Shown here: positions 2,838 through 63,614 of the stretch, in pieces | Layout: every line of letters begins with the position of its first letter | How positions within the stretch are numbered: the stretch's first letter is position 1 | Assembly (NCBI GenBank): GCA_964563165.1 | Contig: CAZLWA010000048.1 | Span: 10,086-74,085 of the forward strand | Reading direction: 5' to 3' | Origin: an uncultured Bacteroidota bacterium | GTDB lineage: Bacteria > CLD3 > SB21 | Length of the DNA stretch: 64,000 nucleotides | The notes under the pieces: model-generated | What the model saw: the letters and a program-made list of their open reading frames with translations, nothing else | What the model was told of the DNA's origin: nothing | Databases searched by the model: none | Translations under genes and position numbers: made by a program

Positions 2838-3596
2838 ATGTTAGAAATTAAGAACCTGCACGCGTCTATTAACGGTAATGAAATTCTTCACGGAATTAAT
2901 CTGAAAGTCAACGCCGGCGAAGTCCATGCGATCATGGGCCCGAACGGATCTGGAAAAAGCACGCTTGCCCAGATCATTGCCGGACGTGAAGCGTATGATA
3001 TCACCCGGGGTGAAATTATTTATAACGGAAAAGACCTGATGGAATTATCTCCGGAAGACCGCGCCTGCGAAGGCGTTTTTCTCGCGTTCCAGTATCCGGT
3101 GGAAATTCCCGGCGTCAACAACACCTATTTCCTGAAAACCGCTTTGAATGCGCTTCGCAAATACCGGGGCGAAGAACCGCTGGACGCGATGGATTTCCTG
3201 ACGCTGGTCAAACAAAAGATCAAACTGATCGACATGGACGAGGACTTACTGAAGCGCCCGGTCAATGAAGGTTTTTCAGGCGGCGAGAAAAAACGCAATG
3301 AAATTTTTCAAATGGCCGTTTTGAACCCGAAACTCGCCGTATTGGACGAAACCGATTCCGGACTCGATATCGACGCTCTTAAGATCGTGTCGAATGGCGT
3401 TAACAAATTCCGGTCAAAGGATAATGGAGTCATCGTGGTCACCCATTATCAGCGCTTGTTGAATTATATTGTCCCGGATTTCGTGCATGTATTGGTGGAC
3501 GGACAGATCGTTAAGTCCGGCGGAAAAGAACTCGCATTGGAACTCGAAGAAAAAGGATATGACTGGACACGCGAAGCAACGGGAGCGACGGCATGA
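2838..3596 (+). CDS. sufC: Fe-S cluster assembly ATPase SufC
   Basis: Walker A motif GPNGSGKST, an ABC signature FSGGEKKR and Walker B LDETDSGLD. The gene overlaps sufD by 4 bp. Confidence 0.92.
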   Translation: MLEIKNLHASINGNEILHGINLKVNAGEVHAIMGPNGSGKSTLAQIIAGREAYDITRGEIIYNGKDLMELSPEDRACEGVFLAFQYPVEIPGVNNTYFLKTALNALRKYRGEEPLDAMDFLTLVKQKIKLIDMDEDLLKRPVNEGFSGGEKKRNEIFQMAVLNPKLAVLDETDSGLDIDALKIVSNGVNKFRSKDNGVIVVTHYQRLLNYIVPDFVHVLVDGQIVKSGGKELALELEEKGYDWTREATGATA

Positions 3597-4903
3597 CGAC
3601 GTATTCGGAAAGAAAAACCTGGTATATCGACCAGTTCAACAAATTCGAGAAAGGCCTCAACGGCCAGCGCACGTCCCCCCTTCATGCGATCCGAAAGCAG
3701 GCGATCGAACAATTTGCCGCGCTGAATTTTCCGGCCGGCGGCAATGAAGATTGGAAGTATACCAATATCGAACCGTTTTTCAAGCATGCGTTTGAGCCGG
3801 CGCCGGCTTATTCCAATGGAAGTCTCTCCCCCGGCAGGATCGAATCGTTTGGTGGATTGTCCTCCATACGGCTGGTGTTCATTGACGGCTGTTTCGCCGA
3901 AGAATTATCGTCTCCGCTCCCGGCGCATTTTAAACTGAGCAATATTTCCGCCGCGTTCCCGACGCACGCGGACCTGATCCGGTCGCAGCTTCAAAATCAT
4001 CTGCAGTCGAACGATAATATTTTTATTTCTCTCAATTCCGCTTTCCTGATGAACGGCGCGTTCATTGAAATTCCGGACGGCATGACCGTGGAAGAGCCAA
4101 TTCATTTACTTTTCATCCATGCGTCAAAAGAAAAAGCGGTTCTTTCTCAGCCGTGCAATTTGATCGTTGCCGGAAAAAACTCCCGGGCCACTATCGTTGA
4201 AACGTATGTCAGCATGGACGACTCGGTCGCGTTCACCAATACGCTGACCTTAATTTCAGCCGGGGACGATTCGGCCATCGATTATGTAAAATTGCAAAAT
4301 GAAAATAATAAGACTTATCATATCGATACGACGCTTCTCGATCTCCGGCGCAACACCCGTTTCATGTCCACGGCCGTTACCTTCGGCGGCGCGCTGACGC
4401 GAAATCTGATCCGGGCGAATTTGAACGCCGAAGGCATTGAGTGTACGCTCAACGGATTGTATCTGACGCAGGACGAACAGCACACGGACAATCGTACGGT
4501 CATCCATCATGCCAAGCCGCATTGCAACAGCCACGAACTTTATAAGGGTATCCTCGACGGAAAGTCCACCGGCGTTTTCAACGGCAAGATCATCGTTCAT
4601 CCCGACGCTCAAAAAACGGATGCGAAACAATCGAATAAGAATCTGCTCTTGTCCAAAGACGCCGCGATCAATACCAAACCGCAGCTGGAAATTTTTGCCG
4701 ACGATGTGAAATGCACGCACGGCGCAACCATCGGGCGCCTGGATGAGGAAAGCTTGTTTTACCTGCGCACCCGCGGCATCGGCATGGAAAATGCCCAACA
4801 TATGCTGACCTATGCGTTTGCAGGTGAAGTTGTAAGTAAAATAAACTGCGAACCGGTCAAAGCTAATTTGGACAAATTGTTATTAGCCCGGCTGGAGCAT
4901 TAA
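3593..4903 (+). CDS. sufD: Fe-S cluster assembly protein SufD
   Basis: 436-aa SufB/SufD-family paralog immediately after sufC. Confidence 0.85.
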   Translation: MTTYSERKTWYIDQFNKFEKGLNGQRTSPLHAIRKQAIEQFAALNFPAGGNEDWKYTNIEPFFKHAFEPAPAYSNGSLSPGRIESFGGLSSIRLVFIDGCFAEELSSPLPAHFKLSNISAAFPTHADLIRSQLQNHLQSNDNIFISLNSAFLMNGAFIEIPDGMTVEEPIHLLFIHASKEKAVLSQPCNLIVAGKNSRATIVETYVSMDDSVAFTNTLTLISAGDDSAIDYVKLQNENNKTYHIDTTLLDLRRNTRFMSTAVTFGGALTRNLIRANLNAEGIECTLNGLYLTQDEQHTDNRTVIHHAKPHCNSHELYKGILDGKSTGVFNGKIIVHPDAQKTDAKQSNKNLLLSKDAAINTKPQLEIFADDVKCTHGATIGRLDEESLFYLRTRGIGMENAQHMLTYAFAGEVVSKINCEPVKANLDKLLLARLEH

Positions 4904-4915
4904 ATTCAAAATCAT

Positions 4916-6175
4916 ATGAGCGTCGCTGAAAAAATAAATATTGAAAAAACGGTTCCTGCCCTGAACGTGGATAAGATCCGGGAAGATTTTCAGATCCTCA
5001 AGGAACTCATTCACGGAAAACCCCTGGTCTATCTCGACAGTGCGAACACCAGTCAGAAACCGCGTTTTGTCATCGATACGATTACGAATTATTACAGCCA
5101 TCAAAATGCCAACATCCATCGCGGTACGCATTATCTCAGCCAGCTTGCGACGTTTGAATATGAGAAAGCGCGCGGTAAAGTGCGGCAATTCATTAATGCC
5201 AAGGACAATAAAGAAATTATTTTCGTACGCGGAACGACCGAAGGCATCAATCTCGTTGCGCATTCTTACGGACGTCAACACATCGGCAAAGGTGATGAAA
5301 TCATCCTGTCGGCGATGGAACATCATTCCAATATCGTTCCATGGCAATTGCTGTGCGAGAGCACGGGCGCCAAACTTCGTATCATACCGATGAACCGGAA
5401 CGGCGAATTGATCCTTGAAGAATATGTCAAACTGCTCAATCCGAAGACCAAGTTCGTTTCGGTCATGCACATTTCCAACGCTTTGGGAACCGTCAATCCG
5501 GTCAAAGAGATCATACGCCTTGCCCATGAACGAAACGCTCCAGTACTGGTGGACGCCGCACAATCCGTTCCTCATACTGCTGTAGATGTGTGCGATCTCG
5601 ACTGTGATTTTCTGGTTTTCTCCGGACATAAGATGTACGGTCCTACCGGCATCGGCGTCTTATACGGAAAACAGAATCTGTTGGAAAGCATGCCGCCGTT
5701 TCTGGGCGGCGGGGATATGATTCGTTCTGTCACCTTTGAAAGAACAACGTACGCCGATCTGCCGAATAAGTTCGAAGCCGGTACCCCGCATATTTCTGGA
5801 GCCATCGGGCTCGGCGCCGCCGTCGATTACATTAACAGAATCGGTATGAGCGCTATCGCGCAGCACGAGCATGAATTGCTCGAATATGCGGCCGAACAAT
5901 TATCCTCTATAAAAAGATTAAGAATTATCGGCACGGCCGCGCAGAAAGCCGGGGCGATTTCATTCGTATTGGACAACGTGCATCCGCATGATGTGGGCAC
6001 GCTTCTGGATGCGGAAGGCGTTGCGATACGAACCGGCCATCATTGCGCCCAGCCCGTGATGCAATTCTATAACGTTCCGGCCACGTCGCGCGCTTCCTTC
6101 GCATGCTACAACACCAAAGAAGAAATCGACGCATTGGTGAAGGGTTTGTACAAAGTCATCGAGGTGTTTAAATAA
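4916..6175 (+). CDS. sufS: Cysteine desulfurase SufS
   Basis: 419-aa class V aminotransferase. PLP-lysine motif SGHKMYGPTGIGVLYG and active-site Cys in RTGHHCAQP. Confidence 0.9.
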   Translation: MSVAEKINIEKTVPALNVDKIREDFQILKELIHGKPLVYLDSANTSQKPRFVIDTITNYYSHQNANIHRGTHYLSQLATFEYEKARGKVRQFINAKDNKEIIFVRGTTEGINLVAHSYGRQHIGKGDEIILSAMEHHSNIVPWQLLCESTGAKLRIIPMNRNGELILEEYVKLLNPKTKFVSVMHISNALGTVNPVKEIIRLAHERNAPVLVDAAQSVPHTAVDVCDLDCDFLVFSGHKMYGPTGIGVLYGKQNLLESMPPFLGGGDMIRSVTFERTTYADLPNKFEAGTPHISGAIGLGAAVDYINRIGMSAIAQHEHELLEYAAEQLSSIKRLRIIGTAAQKAGAISFVLDNVHPHDVGTLLDAEGVAIRTGHHCAQPVMQFYNVPATSRASFACYNTKEEIDALVKGLYKVIEVFK

Positions 6176-6627: not shown

Positions 6628-6671
6628 ATTCTTTTCCCGCAAAACACGCGAAAGGACGCGAAAAATATTTT

Positions 6672-7004: not shown

Positions 7005-7033
7005 CTTATACCAAAGGCCCGATGTTAAAGAGC

Positions 7034-7058
7034 CTTCGTGTCTTGGTGCCTTAGTGGC
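7034..7058. repeat. Family-2 CACGAAG-type repeat, solo half-copy (CCTTCGTGTCTTGGTGCCTTAGTGGC)
   Basis: The same octamer-based motif recurs at 7817-7887, 24421-24502, 41911-41952, 56211-56246 and 63477-63614. Confidence 0.7.
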
Positions 7059-7816: not shown

Positions 7817-7887
7817 GCCACCAAGTCACCAAGACACAAAGAGTATTTTGCTTCTTGTTTTCCTTCGTGTCTTGGTGCCTTCGTGGC
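7817..7887. repeat. Family-2 palindromic element. GCCACCAAGTCACCAAGACACAAAG, about 20 nt, then CCTTCGTGTCTTGGTGCCTTCGTGGC.
   Basis: An imperfect inverted pair that fills the 85-bp gap between two same-strand genes. Confidence 0.75.
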
Positions 7888-18857: not shown

Positions 18858-18954
18858 GGGGGTATTTGATTGTCTGGTGACGTCCACGGTCTTCAAAACC
18901 GTTGTGTCCCGCCTTCGGGCGGGACAGGTTGGGTTCGACTCCCACATACTCCCG
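18858..18954 (+). tRNA. selC: Candidate tRNA-Sec (anticodon UCA), no encoded CCA
   Basis: An 8-bp acceptor stem (GGGGGTAT/ATACTCCC, one G-U pair). A 5-bp anticodon stem (ACGGT/ACCGT) with loop cTTCAaa, giving anticodon TCA. A long variable arm with a perfect 8-bp stem (GTCCCGCC ttcg GGCGGGAC). A canonical T-loop GGGTTCGACTCCC that closely resembles E. coli selC. The D-arm is imperfect (4 bp), so the call is not certain. Confidence 0.6.
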
Positions 18955-23265: not shown

Positions 23266-24441
23266 CTAAAATCCTATTTTTACCAGCGTTCGATCGTATT
23301 TTGAATTGATCGCATCCACTACTTTCAGCAGCCCGTCGCGCTTTTCCGTTTCCAGCAGATCCAGCGTAAGATCCTTTTCGCCGAATTTGGAAACGCCTAA
23401 GCCGATCAACCGGATCGGATCGTGCGCCGTATCGGCTTTTTCCAGCAGCGCCTTCGCTTTCTTGAACAGGACCGCCGGATCGTACGTCGCAGATACGGCC
23501 GCCTGCCGTGTGTGCGTCTCCCAATCGGCGTACCGTAATTTTATGTGAATGCATTGCGCCTTAAGATCATGAGCACGCAAAGCGGCGGAAAGTTTTAGTG
23601 CCATGCCGTGAAGCGTTTCGAATAAAAACTTTTTATCACGTGTGTCTTCGGCAAACGTCACTTCGGCGGAAATTTGTTTTTGTTCACGGCCGGTCGTCAA
23701 CTGCTGAGGGCCTTTTCCCCGCGCAGATTCCTGGATATGTAATCCCCATTTTCCGAAGGTTCGTCCGACCGAGTCGGAATTCATCCCGGCTAAATGTCCG
23801 CAGGTTTGAATATCGTACTCGTTCAAAGATTTCAGCATCACCCTGCCGACCCCGGGCAGTACGTGGACGTTTAGCGGCGCCAGAAATTCAGCTTCTCTCC
23901 CGCTCTCAATTTCTTTCACGCCGAAGGGCTTAGCCTGATCGCATGCAATTTTCGCGGTGATCTTATTGGAAGCAATGCCGATAGCGGAAGGTAATCCGAT
24001 GGTATCCAAAATATCTTTTTGAATCTTACCCGCGAATTGAAACATCGGTTCATGGAACAGTTTCTCACATCCGGTCCAATCAATGTAAAATTCATCCACG
24101 CTCGCCTGTTCAAAGATGGGCGCATAGGGCTTTAAAAACGATTTTACTTTTTCGGAATACTCGTGATACGCTTCGTGGTGGCTGTCAACCCGGATGGCGA
24201 ACGGGCATTTGCGCTGCGCGATGGCGGTGGACATACCTGCGCGTATCCCGTACGGCCGCACTTCGTACGAGGCGCACGTGACGACCCCGCGCTGTTCCGC
24301 TTTGCCCGCAACCATGATCGGTTTACCGGCCAGACCGGGGTTGATCAACCGTTCGACGGAAACGAAAAAAGCCGTGAGGTCGATATGTGCGATTCTCGTG
24401 TTAAGCAAATATCTCTTTCTGCCACGAAGGCACGAAGCCAC
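23266..24441 (-). CDS. dinB: DNA polymerase IV (Y-family). The true start is probably an internal TTG near 24408, because the first roughly 11 codons are translated from a family-2 repeat.
   Basis: IAHIDLTAFFVSVERL and palm/finger motifs of the Y-family. The N-terminus MASCLRGRK overlaps the repeat at 24421-24445. Confidence 0.85.
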   Translation of the reverse strand: MASCLRGRKRYLLNTRIAHIDLTAFFVSVERLINPGLAGKPIMVAGKAEQRGVVTCASYEVRPYGIRAGMSTAIAQRKCPFAIRVDSHHEAYHEYSEKVKSFLKPYAPIFEQASVDEFYIDWTGCEKLFHEPMFQFAGKIQKDILDTIGLPSAIGIASNKITAKIACDQAKPFGVKEIESGREAEFLAPLNVHVLPGVGRVMLKSLNEYDIQTCGHLAGMNSDSVGRTFGKWGLHIQESARGKGPQQLTTGREQKQISAEVTFAEDTRDKKFLFETLHGMALKLSAALRAHDLKAQCIHIKLRYADWETHTRQAAVSATYDPAVLFKKAKALLEKADTAHDPIRLIGLGVSKFGEKDLTLDLLETEKRDGLLKVVDAINSKYDRTLVKIGF

Positions 24442-24502
24442 AAAGTTTCACAAAGGATTTAATTATTTATAGTGGGACTTAGTGCCTTAGTGTCTTTGTG
24501 GC
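24421..24502. repeat. Family-2 palindromic element. GCCACGAAGGCACGAAGCCACAAAG, about 33 nt, then TTAGTGCCTTAGTGTCTTTGTGGC.
   Basis: An inverted pair that fills the dinB/YdeP junction. It contributes spurious terminal residues to both ORFs. Confidence 0.75.
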
Positions 24503-45706: not shown

Positions 45707-45853
45707 TAATCCCTTTTAATCCCCGCCGGAACCTGACCTGAGTTCTTCCACTTCACTCAGGATAAACTCCGTCGAAAGGGCACCCACCTTTGGTAAAGGA
45801 GGGACATGGGAATTCGGTTTTCTGCCCCCTTGAAAAGGGGGTTAGGGGGATTT
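45707..45853. repeat. Family-1 repeat cluster (long variant plus canonical copy)
   Basis: AATCCCTTTTAATCCCCGCCGGAACCTGACCTGAG…GCCCCCTTGAAAAGGGGGTTAGGGGGATT. Confidence 0.8.
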
Positions 45854-46704: not shown

Positions 46705-46768
46705 ACAGATTTCTCCAAAACAATTAATGGTTGAAAATGATTTTAATACGCAAGGAGTTAGAGAATGT

Positions 46769-46944
46769 TCTGTTTTCTTCCCCCTTGAAAAGGGGGTTAG
46801 GGGGATTATTTCCCGTCGGAGCTTGTCCTGGGCGCAGACGAAGGGGCGCCCTAAGAATCCCCCCGCTTCGCTCGCCCCCTTTAGTAAAGGGGGCTGATAA
46901 GATTCTGTTTTCTTCCCCCTTGAAAAGGGGGTTAGGGGGATTTC
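46769..46944. repeat. Two canonical family-1 copies (46769-46806 and 46906-46944) flanking a GC-rich variant segment
   Basis: TTCTTCCCCCTTGAAAAGGGGGTTAGGGGGATT occurs twice. Confidence 0.85.
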
Positions 46945-47542: not shown

Positions 47543-47716
47543 CCCCCTTGAAAAGAGCCTGTCCCGAGCTTGGCGAGGGAGGGTTAGGGGGATTATTACC
47601 CGCCTGAGCCAGCCTTGAGCGCAGCCGAAGGAGCGCCCCCCTTTGGTAAAGGGGGGACTTGGTAACAGACGATTTCTGAATTCCCCCCTTTATTAAAGGG
47701 GGGGTTCGGGGGGATT
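47543..47716. repeat. Composite family-1 repeat. It is a canonical copy with the CCTGAGC-type motif inserted into its hairpin loop, plus a long-variant copy.
   Basis: CCCCCTTGAAAAG-AGCCTGTCCCGAGCTTGGCGAGG-GAGGGTTAGGGGGATT … CCCCCCTTTGGTAAAGGGGGG…CCCCCCTTTATTAAAGGGGGGTTCGGGGGGATT. Confidence 0.8.
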
Positions 47717-48150
47717 CTTTTCTCGACTTCACTTTCGATCATCTTACAAACACCGTCAAATTCATGCAGCACTTCGTAATTGGTAAATCTCAAAACCTTC
47801 AATTTGTAAGCCTCAAGCACTTTCGTGCGGCCTTTGTCATAATCTTTTCCGTCGTCCGTATAATGGCTATCGCCATCCACTTCAATCACCAATTTCAGTT
47901 TAGCACAATAAAAATCTACAATATAATGATCGATGGGCTTTTGTCTCAGAACGGGAAATTTTAAATGCTTTAAAAAGCCATGCCAGAGTTTCTTCTCCGC
48001 CCGTGTCATGGTTCTCCTGAGAGTCCGCGCACGCTCCTTAAGCTTAGGATTGAAAGGCAAGTGATGGCCGGTGGTAATGAGGCCTTTGGCTTTGGCGTCG
48101 TTTTTCATTTCATAGGTTCCCTTTTTTAATCCCCCCGGCGGAGCCTGCAC
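47596..48150 (-). CDS. DUF559 (Vsr-like) endonuclease-domain protein. The core gene is about 47720-48105. Both termini of the tracked ORF are translated repeats.
   Basis: Core HYIVDFYCAKLKLVIEVDGDSH…VLRFTNYEV. The C-terminal tail PPNPPFNKGG… and the N-terminal MQAPPGGLKKG come from family-1 repeats. Confidence 0.75.
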   Translation of the reverse strand: MQAPPGGLKKGTYEMKNDAKAKGLITTGHHLPFNPKLKERARTLRRTMTRAEKKLWHGFLKHLKFPVLRQKPIDHYIVDFYCAKLKLVIEVDGDSHYTDDGKDYDKGRTKVLEAYKLKVLRFTNYEVLHEFDGVCKMIESEVEKRIPPNPPFNKGGNSEIVCYQVPPLPKGGAPSAALKAGSGG

Positions 48151-48246
48151 TGAGCATCGCGAAGTGGCGCCCCCCTTTGGTAAAGGGGGGACTTGGTAAC
48201 AGACGATTTCTGAATTCCCCTTTATTAAAGGGGGGTTCGGGGGGAT
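48128..48246. repeat. Family-1 long-variant copy (AATCCCCCCGGCGGAGCCTGCACTGAGC…GGGGGGTTCGGGGGGATT)
   Basis: About 95% identical to the copies at 47637-47716 and 48519-48597. Confidence 0.85.
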
Positions 48247-48273
48247 TCTCTTGGAGCACTCGAGGAGACCATC

Positions 48274-48497: not shown

Positions 48498-48597
48498 AAT
48501 CCCCCGCCTTCGGCGCCCCCCTTTGGTAAAGGGGGGACTTGGTAACAGACGATTTCTGAATTCCCCCCTTTTATTAAAGGGGGGTTCGGGGGGATTC
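48498..48597. repeat. Family-1 long-variant copy
   Basis: AATCCCCCGCCTTCGGCGCCCCCCTTTGGTAAAGGGGGGACTTGGTAACAGACGATTTCTGAATTCCCCCCTTTTATTAAAGGGGGGTTCGGGGGGATT. Confidence 0.85.
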
Positions 48598-49040
48598 TCC
48601 TGAGCGAGCGAAGCGAGTCGCAGGAGTCATTCCCACGAACGCGGGAATCTATTTCACATCCTCAAATCAGGCTAATTAGAGATTTTATTCCATTCTTTGA
48701 TGCGTCTGATCGCTTCACTAATTTGTTTTTCCAAATCTAATTGTCCAACTAGGTTTTGTTTCGTCAAGAACTTTGAAATTTTTGCGGCGAACAAAACTTT
48801 GTTTTGGAGAAACTTACTGCCTTCGTCTTTCCTGAATTATTTCTTCCAATAATAATATTAATAGGTAATATCGAATCAAATCCATGTTCAACTTCCTTGA
48901 AACATTTATGGTGTTTTAATTTTGATTGATGTCTTGTCTAACATTACTGATCTCTTCCAAATGCGAAAAAAGGCACAAAACCTTCCCATTTTCGGGACGT
49001 CTTGTGCCTTAAATTAAAATTACTTTTCTAATTCAGCTTT

Positions 49041-49156
49041 GCGTCCCCCTGACGCGGAAAATCCCCCGCCTTCGCGGAGCCTGTCCTGAGCGATAGCGAA
49101 GGGCTCAGGCCGCCCCCTTTATTAAAGGGGGCAAGCGCCGAAGGTGCTGGGGGATT
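49041..49156. repeat. Family-1 long-variant copy abutting the nrdJ stop
   Basis: AAAATCCCCCGCCTTCGCGGAGCCTGTCCTGAGCGATAGCGAAGGGCTCAGGCCGCCCCCTTTATTAAAGGGGGCAAG…GGGGGATT. Confidence 0.8.
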
Positions 49157-52100
49157 CTACGAGCACCCCATGCTATTCCCGCAGTTCAGGCATTTGTAGC
49201 ATGCGCCGTTGCGCACGGTCATATGCCCGCACACGTCGCACGCGGGTGCGTCGCCCATCATCTCGCTCAGATGTTTATCGAGTAAATTCTGCGAAGTTTC
49301 TTTCGGGGTCTCCGCGGGCGTATGGTCCACGACCGTCGGCGTAGCCGGGTCGTGCGATTCGCCGTTGAGCGTCGGCGGAATGTGAACGAAATCCATGCGC
49401 TTGAGATATTCCATGCCGAGCACGCGGAAAATAAAATCCAGTATCGAGGTCGCGTTTTTGATGTTCGGGTGATTCGTAAATCCGCTCGGCTCGAAGCGCG
49501 TGAATGTGAATTTCTCCACGAATTTGTCCAGCGGCACGCCGTACTGCAGTCCCATTGAGACCGCGACGGCAAAACAGTTGAGTAAACTGCGGTAGGCTGC
49601 GCCTTCTTTGAACATATCGATGAAGATCTCGCCGATCTGGTTGTCATCGTATTCTCCGGTGCGGAAATAAATTTTATGTCCGCCCATTTCGACTTCCTGC
49701 GTGAATCCCTGCCGTTTGTGCGGCATCGGTTTTTTCTGCCCGCGGCGTAATTCTCTGCCGGACTTTTCGATCGCGTCCTGAACGGCTTTATCCAATTGCG
49801 CTTGCGTGATCGTCATCTCGTCTTCGACCGATTCTTTGGAGGACGATTTATTGCTGAGCGGCTGGGAGAATTTCGATCCGTCGCGGTAGAGCGCCACGGC
49901 TTTGAGCCCGAGCTTCCAGCCTTCGAAATAAATGCGCTCGATATCTTTTACGGTCGCTTCCGAAGGAATATTTACCGTTTTGGAGATCGCACCGGAGAGG
50001 AACGGCTGAACCGCACCCATCATCTTCACGTGCCCCATCGGGTCGATGTAGCGTTTGCCGATACCGCATTTATTCGCGCAGTCGAACACCGCGAGATGTT
50101 CTTCTTTCATTAAGTGAGTTCCTTCCACGGTCTGCGCGCCGGCGATATAGATCACCGCGCGTGAGATCTGTTCACCGGAAAGGCCTTTTTGCTTCAGCGT
50201 CTTGATATTGATATGCGGCGTCCATTCGTCCAGCGATTTATTTTTATTGACGTAAGCTTCGGCTTCGGCAATTTCAGGATCCGTGAAACCCATTTGTTTC
50301 AGTTGTTCCGGATTCACATAGGGCGCACCGTCGAATGTGCCGTGGCCGAGAATGTATTTGATGATACCGTCGATCTCTTCTTTATTATATCCTAATTTGC
50401 CGAGCGATTGCGGAATGGAGCCGTTGACGATCTTGAAATATCCGCCGCCGGCTAATTTTTTCCATTTCACCAAAGAGAATTCCGGTTCGACGCCGGTCGT
50501 GTCGCAATCCATCAAAAGCCCGATCGTTCCCGTTGGGGCAAGCACCGTCGCCTGCGCATTGCGGTAACCGAACTGGCCGCCCATGGCCACGCAGGCGTCC
50601 CAGTCTTCGCGCGCCGCACGGACCAGGTCGTCCGGGCAAAATTCGTTACTGATTTTATAAGCCGCATCGCGGTGTTTGTTCATCACGCGCATCATCGGTT
50701 TTTCATTTTTCTTGTAGCCGGGAAAAGCGCCTTTGACGGAAGCCACCTCCGCGGAACCGCGGAATCCCCACGCATGCATGATCGCGGTGATCGCGCCGGC
50801 CCACGCTCTGCCTTCTTCGGAATCGTACGGAATGCCGTTGACCATCAATAGGGTCCCTAAATTCGCATAACCCAATCCGAGCGGGCGGTAATCGTGGCTG
50901 TTCTGCGCAATTTTCTGGGTCGGGTAGGAAGACATGTCCACGAGAATTTCCTGCGCGATAATGAACACGCGGCAGGCTTCGCGGAATCCTGCGATATCGA
51001 ATTTGCCGGATTCATCGGAACATTTCATCAAATTGACCGACGCGAGATTGCAGGCGGTATCGTCGAGGAACATATATTCCGAGCAGGGATTCGACGCGTG
51101 AATCTTGTCGGTCGACGGGCAGGTGTGCCAGTCATTGATCGTGTCGTCGAATTGAATGCCGGGATCGGCGCATGCCCATGCGGCGTAAGAAATTTGATCG
51201 AACAGATCGCGCGCTTTGTAGGTATCGATGACTTCGCCGGAAGTGCGCGACGTGGTTTTCCATTCGCCGTCGTCGAGAACGGCGTTCATGAATTTATCGG
51301 AAACGCGGACCGAGTTGTTGGAGTTTTGTCCGGAGACGGTTTGGTACGCTTCGCCGTTGAAATCGCTGTCGTATCCGGCGTCGATGAGGGCTTTGACTTT
51401 CTTTTCTTCTTTCACTTTCCAATTGATGAAATCCACGATCTCCGGGTGGTCCATATCGAGGCAGACCATTTTCGCCGCACGGCGCGTGGTGCCGCCGGAT
51501 TTGGTCGCACCCGCTCCGCGGTCCAGAACGCTCAGGAACGACATGAGGCCCGAGGACGTTCCTCCGCCGGAAAGTTTTTCCTGTTTGCCGCGCAAAGATG
51601 AAAAATTGCTGCCCGTGCCGGAACCGTATTTGAAAAGCCGGGCTTCGTTCTTGGCCAATTCAAAAATGCCCATCAGGTCGTCACTCACCGCCTGAATGAA
51701 GCACGCCGAGCATTGCGGATGTGAATACGAATCGGGGGTCATTTCGATGTTGCCTGTTTTAGGATTCCAAAAATAATTTCCGCCCGAACCTTCGATATGA
51801 TATTCCTGGGAAAGGCCGCAATTGAACCAGACCGGCGAATTGAATGCGCCCATTTGATTGACTAGCAGATGCGTGAGTTCCATTTCAAAGATCTCGGCAT
51901 CGTTCTTCGAATCGAAGTATCCTAATTTTTCACCTTCCGCCCGGATCGTATGCGCGACGCGATAGACCAATTGTTTGGCGCTCGTTTCATTGCCGGTTCC
52001 AGGTACTCCCGCTTTGCGGAAATATTTGGAGGCTGCGATGTCCGTAGCCAATTGCGACCAGCTTTTGGGGATATCGAGGTCCTTCATTTCGAAAACAACT

Positions 52101-52813: not shown

Positions 52814-53578
52814 TTGCTTTTTCTTTTCAATTCCGTTATAATTTATCCGGCCTTTTTCCCCATTGAAATTCCATTTCTGTTCACCAATGGAGCTTGCGAT
52901 ATGCCTTCCTTGTCAACCGCGGTTTGGTCATCGGTCGGAAAAAAAATTATCACCGGGCTCACCGGGCTTGCCCTATGCGTGTTCGTTCTCATGCATCTGT
53001 TGGGCAATCTGAATTTGTTTGTCGGCGCGGATGCTTTTAATCTGTATACGCATAAGCTCGAAAGTTTCGGCGGAATATTGTATGTGATCGAGGCGCTGCT
53101 GGCGATGGTTTTCGTACTGCATGCGGTCGTCGGCGTTTCTGTGTGGGTGAAAAAGAGGCAGGCGCGGCCCGTACCTTACGAGCAGGTCGCCAACGCCGGC
53201 GCACCCAGCCATAAATCGCTCTCCTCCCTTTCGATGATCTACACGGGAATTTTGCTCCTTATTTTTTTGGTCCTGCATTTGAAGACCTTCAAATACGGAC
53301 CTTTTTACACGACCTATATTGACGGTGTGGGCGACGTAAGAGATCTTTACCGGTTGGTCATCGACGTCTACCGCGATCCGGTCTATGTGATTTCTTACGT
53401 TATCCTGATGGTTTTGCTCGGCGTGCATTTACGCCACGGTTTCTGGAGCGCATTCCAGTCGCTCGGCGTGAGCAATCCCCGCTTCACCCCGGTGATACAT
53501 ATTTTTGGAATTGCCTTCGCAGTCGCGATCGCCGTGGGGTTCCTAGTGATGCCTGTGTGGATTTATTTGACGAATTAA
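52814..53578 (+). CDS. sdhC: Succinate dehydrogenase/fumarate reductase cytochrome b subunit, type B (the true start is probably ATG at 52901)
   Basis: About 5 TM helices with conserved His (LMHLLGNL, LHAVVG, LHLKTF, HLRHGF). It lies immediately upstream of sdhA and sdhB. Confidence 0.8.
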   Translation: MLFLFNSVIIYPAFFPIEIPFLFTNGACDMPSLSTAVWSSVGKKIITGLTGLALCVFVLMHLLGNLNLFVGADAFNLYTHKLESFGGILYVIEALLAMVFVLHAVVGVSVWVKKRQARPVPYEQVANAGAPSHKSLSSLSMIYTGILLLIFLVLHLKTFKYGPFYTTYIDGVGDVRDLYRLVIDVYRDPVYVISYVILMVLLGVHLRHGFWSAFQSLGVSNPRFTPVIHIFGIAFAVAIAVGFLVMPVWIYLTN

Positions 53579-53579
53579 A

Positions 53580-53674
53580 TACATGTTTCCCCACGAAACA
53601 CACGAAAAAGGCACGAAAAATTTTAATGCAAAATACAAGTGATTGCCCGCGAAATACGCGAAACATGCGAAAAA
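53580..53674. repeat. Family-2 repeat array in CACGAAA orientation upstream of the GxxExxY gene
   Basis: CCCCACGAAACACACGAAAAAGGCACGAAAAA … TTGCCCGCGAAATACGCGAAACATGCGAAAAA. Confidence 0.8.
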
Positions 53675-54085
53675 ATGAATACAAAAAATATTGTCTTTGC
53701 TGAAGAAAGCTACAAAATCCTCGGGGCATGTTTCAATGTTTACAAAGCGAAAGGGTGCGGATTTTTAGAGGCAGTCTATCATGAATGCCTGCAAATAGAA
53801 TTTGAATTTCAGAAAATTCCTTTTGTATCCCAGAAGGAACTGGCAATAGAATATCGAGATCGGCTACTCAAACAAAACTACAAAGCCGATTTTATTTGTT
53901 TTGACAAGATCATCGTTGAAATAAAGGCGGCTTCCAAAATAATCGATGAACACCGGGCACAGGTATTGAATTATGTTAATGCGACAAATTCTAAACTCGG
54001 CATTTTGGTCAATTTCGGACATTATCCTAAATTGGAATACGAACGGTTTGCGTTGACTGAAAAAAAAGTTACAAAAACAGTTTAA
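53639..54085 (+). CDS. GxxExxY-family protein (PD-(D/E)xK-like). The true start is probably ATG at 53675.
   Basis: GCGFLEAVYHECLQIEF (the GxxExxY motif) and DFICFDKIIVEIK (a PD-(D/E)xK core). It is inserted between sdhC and sdhA and bracketed by inverted repeat arrays. Confidence 0.75.
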   Translation: MIAREIRETCEKMNTKNIVFAEESYKILGACFNVYKAKGCGFLEAVYHECLQIEFEFQKIPFVSQKELAIEYRDRLLKQNYKADFICFDKIIVEIKAASKIIDEHRAQVLNYVNATNSKLGILVNFGHYPKLEYERFALTEKKVTKTV

Positions 54086-54289
54086 AAACTTTTGCGCCTT
54101 TTCGCGTGTTTCGCGGGCAAATAGTTTCTGTGTTTCGTGGGAAAAAGTTTTCGCGTGTTTGGCGGTTTAATAGTTTTCGTGTCTTTTCGTGTTTTTCGTG
54201 GGAAAAGTTTTCGCGTATTTCGCGGGCTAAGTTTTTTTCGTGTCTTTCGTGGGGAAGTATTCTGCGGGCAAGCATAAGGAGAATGATAA
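54086..54289. repeat. Tandem array of about 7 copies of a degenerate 25-bp unit (GTTTTCGCGTGTTTCGCGGGCAAAT) in TTCGTG orientation
   Basis: Contiguous units are visible: GTTTTCGCGTGTTTCGCGGGCAAATA / GTTTCTGTGTTTCGTGGGAAAAA / GTTTTCGCGTGTTTGGCGGTTTAATA / GTTTTCGTGTCTTTTCGTGTTTTTCGTGGGAAAA / GTTTTCGCGTATTTCGCGGGCTAA / GTTTTTTTCGTGTCTTTCGTGGGGAA. Confidence 0.85.
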
Positions 54290-56203
54290 ATGAAACTAGA
54301 TTCAAAGATCCCGTCCGGGCCGTTAGCCGATAAATGGGACAAACATAAATTCGATATCAAATTGGTCAACCCGGCCAACAAACGGAAATACACTATAATA
54401 GTAGTCGGGACCGGGTTGGCCGGCGGATCTGCGGCGGCGAGCCTGGCGGAATTAGGCTACAACGTTTTGAGTTTTTGCATTCAGGATTCGCCGCGCCGTG
54501 CGCACAGCATCGCCGCCCAAGGCGGCATCAACGCCGCCAAGAATTACCCTAACGACGGCGACAGCGTGTGGAGGTTATTTTACGATACCATCAAAGGCGG
54601 CGATTACCGTTCCCGTGAAGCCAATGTCTATCGCCTCGCACAGCTGAGCACCAACATCATCGATCAATGCGTCGCCCAGGGCGTTCCGTTCGCCCGCGAG
54701 TACGGCGGACAATTGGACAACCGGTCCTTCGGCGGTGCGCAGGTATCGCGCACCTTTTACGCGCGCGGGCAAACCGGCCAGCAGCTTTTACTCGGGGCAT
54801 ACAGTTCGCTGATGCGCCAGGTGGATACGGGCCGCGTCAAGTTATTTCCCCGCCGGGAAATGCTGGATCTTGTTATCGCCGGCGGCAAAGCGCGCGGTAT
54901 TGTCGCCCGAAATCTCGTCGACGGCACCATCGAATCCTATGCCGCGGATGCGGTCATACTGGCTACCGGCGGTTACGGTAACGCATACTATCTTTCGACC
55001 AACGCAAAAAATTCGAATGTCACCGCCGCATGGCGCTGCTACAAGCGCGGTGCACTGTTTGCCAATCCGTGCTTCACGCAAATTCACCCGACGTGCATCC
55101 CGGTTTCCGGCGATCACCAGGCGAAGCTCACCTTGATGAGCGAAAGCCTGCGCAACGACGGACGTGTATGGGTTCCGAAAAATAAAGGCGACCGGCGCCC
55201 GCCGGAACAAATTCCGGAAGAAGACCGCGATTATTATCTCGAAAGAAAATATCCGAGCTTCGGCAATCTCGTTCCGAGGGACGTGGCTTCCCGTAATGCG
55301 AAAGCGGTGTGCGACGAAGGCCGCGGTGCGGGCGATTCGGGCTTGTCCGTATATTTGGATTTTCGCGACGCCCTTAAACGCGTCGGAGAACATTCGATCA
55401 AAGAAAAATACGGCAACCTCTTCGATATGTATCAACGCATCACGGATGAGGACCCGTACCACGTTCCGATGCGCATTTATCCGGCGATCCACTATACGAT
55501 GGGCGGCTTGTGGGTGGATTATAATCTGATGAGCACGATTCCCGGACTGCATGTATTAGGCGAGGCGAATTTCTCCGACCACGGTGCGAACCGCCTCGGC
55601 GCGAGCGCACTCATGCAGGGTTTGGCGGACGGTTACTTCGTGATCCCCTATACGATCGGTCATTATCTGGCAACTGCCGATCTTCCTAAGATCGATACGG
55701 ATCAAAAAGAATTCAAAACAGTTGCCGAGGAAGTGAAAACGAAAACCGCAAAAATGCTTGCCATCAAAGGCAAAAAGACTGTTACGGAATTCCATCGCAG
55801 CATCGGAAAATTGTTGTGGGATTATGTCGGTATGGCACGGAATGAAAAAGGATTGAAAAAAGTGATTAAAGAAATTCCGAAATTACGCGAAGAGTTCTGG
55901 CAGAACGTTTCGATTCCTGCGGACGGCGATTCGCTGAACAAGAATCTGGAATTTGCCGGGCGCGTTGCCGATTTTCTGGAATTGGGTGAATTGATGGCGC
56001 GGGATGCACTGAACCGCAAAGAATCGTGCGGCGGGCATTTCCGCGAGGAATATCAAACTCCGGACGGCGAAGCGAAACGCGACGACACCAATTTTTCATA
56101 CATTGCCGCGTGGGAATATGCCGGCGATAAAAAGGAACCGGTTTTGAATAAAGAAAAACTGGAATTCGAGAACGTTCATTTGAGTCAACGCAGTTATAAG
56201 TAA
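54290..56203 (+). CDS. sdhA: Succinate dehydrogenase/fumarate reductase flavoprotein subunit
   Basis: FAD-binding motif [15 protein letters not shown], a covalent-FAD His region (HSIAAQGG) and 637 aa. Confidence 0.9.
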
Positions 56204-56210
56204 TTGGGCG

Positions 56211-56246
56211 GCCACAAAGGCACGAAGGCACAAAATATTTTGTAGA
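56211..56246. repeat. Family-2 repeat fragment between sdhA and sdhB (GCCACAAAGGCACGAAGGCACAAAATATTTTGTA)
   Basis: Read from the sequence. Confidence 0.65.
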
Positions 56247-56252
56247 AAAGGA

Positions 56253-57011
56253 TTGCGGTATATGGAAAATATGACCCTTCATTTGCGCGTATGGCGTCAG
56301 AAAAATACTTCGAGCAAGGGTAGGATGGTCGACTACACGCTCACCGGCGTTTCGCCCGATATGTCATTTCTGGAAATGATGGACACGCTCAATGAAAAAT
56401 TAATTAAAGAAGGCGTCGAACCCGTCGAATTCGACAACGATTGCCGCGAAGGCATTTGCGGCATGTGCAATATGGTGATCAACGGCATCGCGCACGGCCC
56501 CCAAAAGGGCACGGCGACGTGTCAATTGCACGTGCGTAAATTCAAGGACGGCGATACGATCACCGTCGAACCCTGGCGCGCCAAAGCGTTTCCCGTTCTG
56601 AAAGATCTCGTGGTCGACCGCAGCGCGTTCGATCACATTATCGCGGCAGGCGGCTACACGTCCGTGAATGCCGGGGGCGCACCGGATGGAAATGCGATTC
56701 TGATCTCAAAGGAATTGGCCGATAAAGCGATGGACGCGGCGGCATGTATCGGCTGTGGAGCCTGCGTGGCTGCGTGTCCCAACGGATCGGCATCTCTTTT
56801 TGTCGCAGCAAAGATCGCCCAGTTTACGTTTCTTCCTCAGGGCCATCCGGAACGGGGGCGCCGCGCGCTGCGCATGGTTGAAAAAATGGACGAGCTGGAA
56901 TTCGGCGATTGCTCCAATCACGGCGAATGCGAAGCCGTTTGCCCGAAGGAAATTTCCATTTCACACATCGCCCTCATGCGCCGGGAATATCTTAAGGCCG
57001 CTTTCGACTAA
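56253..57011 (+). CDS. sdhB: Succinate dehydrogenase/fumarate reductase iron-sulfur subunit
   Basis: A 2Fe-2S motif (CREGICGMC) and two 4Fe-4S/3Fe-4S Cys clusters ([24 protein letters not shown]). Confidence 0.9.
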
Positions 57012-57042
57012 GTTTTGCATCCAACAGCCCCAGTCTTTAAAA

Positions 57043-57075
57043 AGTTCCGTCTCCTCAGAGATGGAACTTTTTTTA
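57043..57075 (+). terminator. Intrinsic terminator after sdhB. Stem AGTTCCGTCTC/GAGATGGAACT followed by T7.
   Basis: Read from the sequence. Confidence 0.65.
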
Positions 57076-63476: not shown

Positions 63477-63614
63477 TTGCCCGCGAAACATGTGAAAAAA
63501 AACAGAAAACAAATTTTGCCGCTAAGACACAAAGTTTTAGTGTTTAAGAAACCTTAGCGTCTTGGAGTCTTAGGGGTTATGAATTTGTTGTTTCTTCGCT
63601 TTTTTCGCGGGCAG
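63477..63614. repeat. Family-2 gene-less inverted pair (TTGCCCGCGAAACATGTGAAAAAAAAC … TTCGCTTTTTTCGCGGGCAG) enclosing about 90 bp with ACACAAAG and CTTAGCGTCTTGG motifs
   Basis: The termini match those that bracket the GxxExxY gene. Confidence 0.7.

Follow-up and report, generated by a model that had tools for sequence, protein, structure and literature searches.

Here, we analysed a stretch of 64,000 nt from an uncultured Bacteroidota bacterium (GenBank assembly GCA_964563165.1, contig CAZLWA010000048.1, positions 10,086 to 74,085 of the forward strand), hereafter called the window, in which a small gene of the GxxExxY family, coding for a predicted PD-(D/E)XK nuclease, is located between sdhC and sdhA of the succinate dehydrogenase operon and is flanked by inverted arrays of a short repeat. 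This arrangement, already described in a first-pass annotation of the window, is borne out by the open reading frames (ORFs), by profile matches and by the positions of the repeated heptamers. We propose that the nuclease gene and the arrays bracketing it form a compact, self-contained cassette whose arrays are recognised by its own product, and we assign a probability of roughly 55% to this reading. Recognition of the flanking repeat arms by the protein, taken as a claim of its own, appears highly probable from the sequence comparison, since residue 24 of the protein covaries with base 7 of the repeated heptamer, which points towards the arms being the recognition sites of the nuclease.

Inverted arms surround GxxExxY genes in more than ten phyla

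Relatives of the gene were sought in one genome per species; more than 578 were confirmed and the best 80 loci were examined. As a measure of inverted flanks, the 150 nt before the start codon were scored against the 150 nt after the stop codon, with a threshold of 13. This score was reached in 63 of 81 testable loci (median 17, compared to a mean of about 7 and a maximum of 14 for shuffled flanks and a median of 8 in direct orientation), and most of the other 18 still carry recognisable degenerate arms. The 81 loci span more than ten phyla, among them Verrucomicrobiota, Planctomycetota, Calditrichota, Ignavibacteriota, Cloacimonadota, Acidobacteriota, Armatimonadota and Lentisphaerota. The expectation that such flanks accompany GxxExxY genes in general, which homologues devoid of flanks would have contradicted, is hence in line with the 63 loci found.

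The consensus reads GCCC-RCGAAA-YA-CRCGAAA-(2-4 nt)-CRCGAAA, followed by the ATG, the gene, its stop codon and the reverse complement of the same arm. One arm thereby comprises 2-3 heptamers spaced 9-11 nt, with GCCC/GGGC at its outer end, and measures 19-31 nt; the inner heptamer often contacts or overlaps the start codon. Lineages differ in the heptamer (CGCGAAT, CACGGAT, CACAGAT, CGCTAAA and CGCGGAA were observed), while both sides of a gene always match. In the cultured species Bacteroides finegoldii, three copies each of CACAGAGGA and CTCTGTG surround a GxxExxY gene, and the same layout was found in Bernardetia (CACAGAG) and Treponema (CACGGAT). The proteins of these three are only 31-47% identical, with the design retained.

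Cassettes occupy spacers within operons, such as those for sdh, nuo and ABC transporters. The nuclease gene shares its strand with both neighbours in 45 of 84 loci and with the downstream gene in 65 of 75. An instructive case is the complex I operon of a member of the Chthoniobacterales (L059) with elements at 1526-1600, 2463-2941 and 4762-5227: a gene-less CACAGAT hairpin between nuoI and nuoJ, a cassette with asparagine at residue 24 and T at base 7 (N/T) between nuoK and nuoL, and a cassette with lysine and A (K/A) after nuoL. The nuoK-nuoL site holds either an N/T or a K/A cassette, depending on the Chthoniobacterales genome. Gene-less hairpins of a left and a right arm as well as solo arms are common across the examined loci. 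In about ten loci, the arms nearest to the gene are reversed, with a right-type arm upstream and a left-type arm downstream, because these genes sit in tandem clusters of gene-less hairpins (e.g. L004, 2349-3109, and L021, 2046-2896); in L004, a block of up to 108 nt is repeated identically on either side of the gene. Across approximately 400 kb of loci, the only other ORF framed by inverted arms was a transhydrogenase-like host membrane gene between two hairpins (L078), and nothing in the dataset supports the use of these arms by further gene families.

Residue 24 of the nuclease covaries with base 7 of the heptamer

Lysine, arginine or glutamate at residue 24 occurs together with A at base 7 in 58 loci and asparagine together with T in 17, with no exception. 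Seven loci checked later all agree (L084, L098, L099 and L103 with asparagine and T; L097, L100 and L102 with arginine, threonine or methionine and A), so that the combined set comprises 61 loci with K/R/E/T/M and A and 21 loci with N and T. The mutual information between residue 24 and base 7 amounts to 0.80 of 0.87 possible bits, with the runner-up column at 0.49. Proteins of the N-type do not form a clade: at least 13 changes are required on a neighbour-joining tree built without the residue-24 column, and at 75% linkage these proteins fall into 13 groups, most of which have some non-N protein closer to them than any further N group. When one Chthoniobacterales clade is set aside, the 11 remaining N-type proteins are separated from the rest by no column but residue 24 (next best difference 0.37). 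No outstanding single protein column was found for the covariation at heptamer positions 2, 4 and 5.

The pairing also holds within single genomic regions. In L059, the two cassettes are 2.3 kb apart and each keeps its own combination of residue and base, and in 24 of 25 unambiguous cases the type of gene-less arms at least 150 nt away from a gene agrees with that of the local protein. Protein and arms may thus travel as a unit, as suggested by the double cassette of L059, by the occurrence of either type at the nuoK-nuoL site and by an N-type cassette at the sdh site of L084.

The encoded protein and its fold

The ORF of the window matches the profiles PF13366 (PDDEXK_3; E=1.2e-39, 135.7 bits, cut-off 22) and TIGR04256 (GxxExxY; E=8e-40, 135.8 bits, cut-off 35). 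Both motifs named in the first-pass annotation, GCGFLEAVYHE and DFICFDKIIVEIK, were recovered in the ORF. The GxxExxY motif corresponds to residues 29-35 (G29-F-L-E32-A-V-Y35), and the catalytic residues D72, E82 and K84 do not vary among 24 homologues. The fold is of the restriction-endonuclease-like alpha/beta type, as in Cas4 and restriction endonucleases. Residue 24 (K24 here, in the context FNVY-K) ends the N-terminal helix directly before the GxxE turn, which bears a catalytic glutamate, and is thus probably close to the active site. The family defined by both profiles is large, with 10,585 cluster representatives at E<=1e-3 in a representative library clustered at 50% identity.

Two cysteines, C38 and C75, are invariant across the GxxExxY homologues, C19 is nearly so, and C28 is common and sometimes replaced by asparagine. 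In Cas4, the closest fold, four cysteines bind an Fe-S cluster; by analogy, a metal site in the GxxExxY protein is conceivable.

The fold, together with weak Cas4 profile matches in PADLOC, might be taken to indicate that the gene serves restriction-like defence or addiction, with its flanking sites as marks or protection of 'self'. We consider this very unlikely: a methyltransferase or partner gene is absent, the neighbours are housekeeping genes of an operon, an sdh or nuo location is unlike a defence island, and defence-system models match no better than the weak similarity to the Cas4 core. The GxxExxY protein further differs from Cas4/RecB-like nucleases in its size (about 125 aa compared to about 200 aa for Cas4), in the lack of a CRISPR-cas context and in that no sequence-level match of the window protein to solved structures was obtained. 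A CRISPR array was likewise rejected as an explanation of the repeats, as the units are contiguous without spacers and cas genes are absent.

The cassette in the sdhC-sdhA spacer

The features of the operon and of the cassette are as follows (coordinates refer to the window).

52901-53578, + strand: sdhC, cytochrome b subunit of succinate dehydrogenase/fumarate reductase, upstream host gene (ORF; weak PF01127 match; synteny)
53586-53620, + strand: outer left arm, TTTCCCCACGAAACACACGAAAAAGGCACGAAAAA, with CACGAAA three times, at 53592, 53601 and 53612
53643-53674, + strand: inner left arm, TTGCCCGCGAAATACGCGAAACATGCGAAAAA, adjoining the start codon and orthologous to the single left arm of L002 and L003
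53675-54085, + strand: GxxExxY-family PD-(D/E)XK nuclease gene from ATG to stop, 136 aa
54090-54274, + strand: right array of about seven units with 11 exact TTTCGYG (units 54099-54121, 54123-54145, 54148-54170, 54174-54206, 54208-54230 and 54234-54256; degenerate 54257-54274)
54290-56203, + strand: sdhA, flavoprotein subunit, downstream host gene, which has a Shine-Dalgarno sequence (AAGGAG) of its own
56253-57011, + strand: sdhB, iron-sulfur subunit

The synteny of sdhC with sdhA and sdhB is shared by 16 related loci. A GTG at 53639 provides an alternative start of the nuclease gene (148 aa), with the ATG at 53675 being favoured by the alignment of homologues. The left flank (53586-53674) contains five exact copies of CRCGAAA (at 53592, 53601, 53612, 53648 and 53657), and a degenerate TGCGAAA heptamer adjoins the ATG. 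On the right, 11 exact copies of TTTCGYG start between 54100 and 54245 (to 54251), accompanied by three degenerate copies and organised in 6-7 units with a period of 24-27 nt and a higher-order repeat of 60 nt; relatives have an orthologue of the first unit as their only right arm. Left and right arms are reverse-complementary, 53587-53609 pairing with 54234-54256 (23 nt, 96%) and 53645-53663 with 54209-54227 (19 nt, 100%), and the arrays are nested, a CGCG-type pair lying inside a CACG-type pair. What had been annotated as a 25-bp unit is better read as a pair of heptamers that ends in GGGC(AA).

Nine matches to the two-heptamer pattern TTTCGYG-N1-4-TTYCGYG were counted in the window, compared to 0.17 expected from shuffled sequences, and eight of them flank the nuclease gene, on the minus strand upstream and on the plus strand downstream. 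Flanks that arose by chance from low-complexity sequence or replication slippage, unrelated to the gene, would fit the extra units, which look like local tandem duplications with a 60-nt higher-order period. This explanation has a practically negligible probability and was refuted by the shuffle expectation, by the flank scores of homologues with the same inverted arms in more than ten phyla and by the covariation of the arms with the protein.

The proposed co-transcription of the cassette with the operon is plausible, as the earliest strong terminator-like hairpin is located at 57039-57072 after sdhB, and as the cassettes of relatives are co-oriented with their neighbours.

Arms without a nuclease gene were found at two further sites of the window.

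63477-63614, + strand: gene-less derivative with the left arm TTGCCCGCGAAACATGTGAAAAAA..., the right arm ...CTTTTTTCGCGGGCA and a nested period-8 hairpin inside
6633-6665, + strand: solo left-type arm, CCCGCAAAACACGCGAAAGGACGCGAAAAA, with a nifU-like gene on one side and an FeS-assembly (PF01883) gene on the other

The first of these confirms a gene-less inverted pair noted previously. Its left side aligns with the inner arm and the first approximately 20 nt of the nuclease ORF with a score of 48 (shuffled controls: mean 20.5, maximum 35), which supports the view that it is a derivative retaining the 5' end of the ORF.

Heptamers rather than a stem appear to be under selection

But, do the arms act as DNA sites or as a stem in the operon mRNA? 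In the latter case, left and right arms would pair as a closing stem that is processed by RNase III or that stabilises or insulates the flanking cistrons, and the ORF would be a passenger or encode a protein acting on the RNA duplex. Such a module would suit the position of the cassettes within operons and their co-orientation (45 of 84 loci for both neighbours, 65 of 75 for the downstream gene), the start codon adjoining or overlapping the left arm, the absence of a strong internal terminator and the predicted folds, in which left arms pair with right arms (z=-7.3 in the window; an 18-bp closing stem in L002). Nevertheless, we regard it as rather improbable. Arm mismatches on the sense strand comprise 18 of the G:U-type and 39 of the A:C-type and thus show no preference for G:U, and the identity between left and right is 91% in the heptamers but 71% in the spacers, compared to 65% in the between-locus control. 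Although a stem is predicted, these two tests give it no support as the selected feature. In addition, a stem does not need the 9-11-nt periodicity of heptamers within the arms, the order of the arms is reversed in about ten loci, no Rfam match was obtained over 53400-54400 at E<=1, and the covariation of residue 24 with base 7 points to sequence-specific recognition by a protein. Since a G:U bias is absent and the spacers are alike only at the level of the control, selection probably acts on the heptamer sequence and on a spacing of about one helical turn, as for an array of protein-binding sites.

The sdhC-sdhA junction in related genomes

An identical protein is encoded on one further contig of the same organism (L001). 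In L002 and L003, an orthologous gene occupies the identical site (sdhA 81-83% identical, GxxExxY 79% and 76%), with a single arm on each side (CCCGCGAAACACGCGAAAAAATG ... TTTCGCGTGTTTCGCGGGC in L002, similar in L003). As these relatives have one arm per side, the basic design probably consists of one arm on each side, and the long arrays of the window appear to be a local tandem amplification. The arms are still nearly identical among the window, L002 and L003, between which synonymous sites are saturated, and pN is 0.10-0.18 for the nuclease, 0.09-0.12 for sdhA and 0.21-0.27 for sdhC, by which sdhC is the least constrained of the three. Orthology at the same site, synonymous saturation and a constraint like that of sdhA together indicate that the cassette is most likely an old insertion under purifying selection.

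The junction is occupied differently in L084 (930-1400), where sdhA is 85% identical and GxxExxY only 52% and where the cassette has asparagine at residue 24 and arms of the CACGAAT-type. This implies either a replacement of the cassette or an independent insertion at the same site. In six more distant relatives (L085, L088 and L092-L095), the junction is empty with an sdhC-sdhA gap of about 10-35 nt, in agreement with the short spacing that had been predicted for relatives lacking the cassette. From the mobile-element interpretation of the first-pass annotation, the insertion and the inverted flanks turned out to be real; the element is, however, ancient, a target-site duplication is not detectable, and its mobility can only be deduced.

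A proposed mechanism

Following this argumentation, an ancestor would have gained the cassette between the stop codon of sdhC and the ribosome-binding site of sdhA. As the cassette is devoid of a promoter or terminator of its own, it would be expressed by read-through from the operon, and its arms would later have been duplicated in tandem in this genome to two units on the left and about seven on the right. The protein would bind double-stranded DNA at the heptamer arrays flanking its gene and at gene-less copies elsewhere, and the active nuclease would cut at or close to them. Cutting could then lead to copying, replacement or maintenance at arm-bearing intergenic sites via host recombination without target-site duplication. 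Binding, cleavage and mobility of the cassette are steps that we infer. The logic would resemble, by analogy, that of a transposase with its terminal inverted repeats, or of REP-associated tyrosine transposases (RAYTs) with REP sequences and REPINs, carried out by another enzyme fold. In favour of mobility, related genomes differ in the presence or absence of a cassette at the sdh junction, and the same junction can hold different cassette types (sdh in the window and in L084; nuoK-nuoL with N/T or K/A). The identity of 60-79% between GxxExxY proteins of different phyla suggests their horizontal spread. The gene-less copy at 63477-63614, which has kept the 5' end of the ORF, and the identical hairpin copies of up to 108 nt around some genes point the same way.

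Several points weigh against a mobile cassette that is read by its own nuclease. No target-site duplication was found, the lengths of flanking direct repeats at 51 loci being equal to those of the between-locus control, and no recent identical copies were seen in the 64 kb of this genome or in the comparison of one genome per species. Cassettes at orthologous operon sites across genera would fit a domesticated, non-mobile gene as well. The family is rare on plasmids (7 of 72,556 records, mostly megaplasmids), was not found in phage records and is represented by one locus in IMG/VR. A PD-(D/E)XK nuclease by itself is not known to have strand-transfer or transposase-type activity. Remnants of the ORF were present in none of the 15 loops of gene-less hairpins at other loci; an origin by internal deletion thus finds support at 63477-63614 but not for such hairpins at large. 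As for recognition, a more distant 'VH[K/R]' subfamily appears, from read-through peptides, to combine CACAGAT arms with lysine or arginine at residue 24; the K/N rule may thus apply within the 'VY[K/R/N]' subfamily only. An ancient split left unresolved in a star-like phylogeny might in principle also produce the covariation.

Along these lines, the protein might be a domesticated, immobile regulator which uses the flanking heptamers as operators for autoregulation and modulation of the operon and is inherited only vertically. The long persistence at the junction under purifying selection comparable to sdhA, the missing target-site duplication and the scarcity of the family on plasmids and phages would all be expected from such a regulator, and recognition deduced from covariation suits operator binding equally. 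The explanation is nonetheless unlikely in our view, as it accounts neither for differing cassette types at one junction in related genomes nor for the variable presence among relatives, the 60-79% identity between phyla or the gene-less and solo arms dispersed elsewhere; strict conservation of catalytic residues would moreover be needless for a pure repressor. Returning to a self-contained cassette recognised by its own nuclease, a bolder extension is possible, to which we attach little confidence: GxxExxY proteins might be the enzymes of widespread, unrecognised miniature selfish elements, i.e. nucleases of about 125 aa with a residue-to-base code (K24-A, N24-T), which cleave arm-bearing hairpins between the genes of operons and use the 20-30-nt arms as homology to spread by recombinational 'homing'. 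Such homing would explain both the missing target-site duplications and the replacement of cassette types at one junction.

Comparison with known systems

The closest likeness is to REPIN-RAYT systems, in which a RAYT gene lies between REP sequences (Bertels & Rainey, PMC3337134; PMC5581495). Both have a small nuclease or transposase gene between inverted copies of a short intergenic repeat of the genome, gene-less inverted doublets in other intergenic regions, no target-site duplication, long vertical inheritance of the gene under purifying selection and co-diversification of repeats and protein. In contrast, the enzyme of the cassette is of the PD-(D/E)XK type, whereas RAYTs are HUH/Y1 enzymes (IS200/IS605-like), and an arm consists of 2-3 direct, non-palindromic heptamers, with pairing predicted only between left and right, while a REP is itself an imperfect palindrome. 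GxxExxY genes can also be present in several copies per genome, as in L059, RAYTs typically being single-copy, and the cassettes differ in lying inside operons in co-orientation with them. The REPIN/RAYT literature concerns HUH enzymes; in the literature searched for GxxExxY, PF13366, TIGR04256 and REPIN/RAYT-like descriptions, no association of the family with repeats and no occurrence of the arm sequences themselves was found.

With insertion sequences and miniature inverted-repeat transposable elements, the cassette shares a gene bounded by terminal inverted repeats with repeated subterminal, here putative, binding motifs, gene-less derivatives (63477-63614 keeping the 5' end of the ORF) and a presence that differs among related genomes. 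It differs in that its sole ORF is a PF13366 nuclease instead of a DDE, serine, tyrosine or HUH transposase, in the absence of target-site duplications (51 loci), in the size of the whole element of only about 0.5 kb and in positions that are stable for very long times, recent identical copies not having been seen.

Free-standing homing endonuclease genes are similar as small nuclease ORFs in short spacers between conserved genes, co-oriented and without regulatory signals of their own, and as patchily distributed among relatives (L002, L003 and L084 carry a cassette at the sdh site, which is empty in L085, L088 and L092-L095); the PD-(D/E)XK fold is among the known folds of homing endonucleases. 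However, homing endonucleases recognise the uninterrupted target in an empty allele, while the presumed recognition motifs of the cassette are repeated within its own ends, and homing endonuclease genes are not known to be flanked by arrays of inverted repeats.

Where intervening sequences of 23S rRNA carry an ORF, they likewise enclose it by inverted repeats with a possible closing stem and show a mosaic distribution among bacteria (for context, PMC2672173). These sequences are excised by RNase III, and their classic protein is a four-helix bundle from an ORF family other than GxxExxY. The cassettes, in contrast, are located in mRNA operons and were negative in the tests for selection at the RNA level (18 versus 39 mismatches; pairing of spacers not maintained).

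For a large family whose function was given as 'Unknown' in a survey of PD-(D/E)XK proteins (PMC3424549), these results provide a concrete and testable role as a proposed sequence-specific nuclease, with a recognition motif that each gene displays directly in its own flanks and with one predicted specificity residue. They also account for the short repeats that Bacteroides and many little-studied phyla have within core operons (sdh, nuo, ABC transporters), and suggest a second, independently evolved counterpart to the REPIN-RAYT relationship. Should biochemistry bear out the residue-to-base rule, proteins of 125 aa would be unusually small DNA-recognition modules with switchable specificity.

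Further repeats in the window

Octamer palindromes, annotated previously as termini related to those of the cassette, are indeed present at 7817-7885, 24420-24499 and 63520-63576, but belong to a separate period-8 family. This family forms inverted arrays (GCCACGAAGGCACGAAGCCACAAAG ... CTTAGTGCCTTAGTGTCTTTGTGGC) and solo arms at 7032-7055, a right-type arm after the FeS-assembly (PF01883) gene, and at 56211-56234 in the sdhA-sdhB spacer. Its arrays resemble the CACAGAGGA arms of distant Bacteroides GxxExxY genes (L106), and the window holds no cognate gene. Another family of period-8 inverted arrays occurs in L014 at 2924-3008, directly 3' of a GxxExxY cassette, and also at 302-386, 1183-1206 and 4370-4401 (TGATGGAT/TAATGGAT versus ATCCATTA/ATCCATCA). 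Inverted arrays of short direct repeats may represent a recurring element design comprising several sequence families, as these observations suggest.

In the first-pass annotation, the cassette was counted as the second, independent case of a general repeat-plus-nuclease design. The other case is probably a DUF559 gene (Vsr-like endonuclease, PF04480, E=1.5e-29) at 47596-48150 on the minus strand, which together with small neighbouring ORFs is interleaved with a direct repeat of about 86 nt containing G/C runs (GCGCCCCCCTTTGGTAAAGGGGGGACTTGG...GGGGGGATTC). Copies are located at 47633-47718, 48167-48252 and 48513-48598, with related copies at 45773-45852, 46752-46807, 46887-46942 and approximately 49050-49160. 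As these are direct 86-nt repeats and not inverted heptamer arrays, a design shared by both genes was not established. The sole Rfam match of the window at the gathering threshold is a selenocysteine tRNA gene at 18858-18953 on the plus strand (RF01852, 65 bits).

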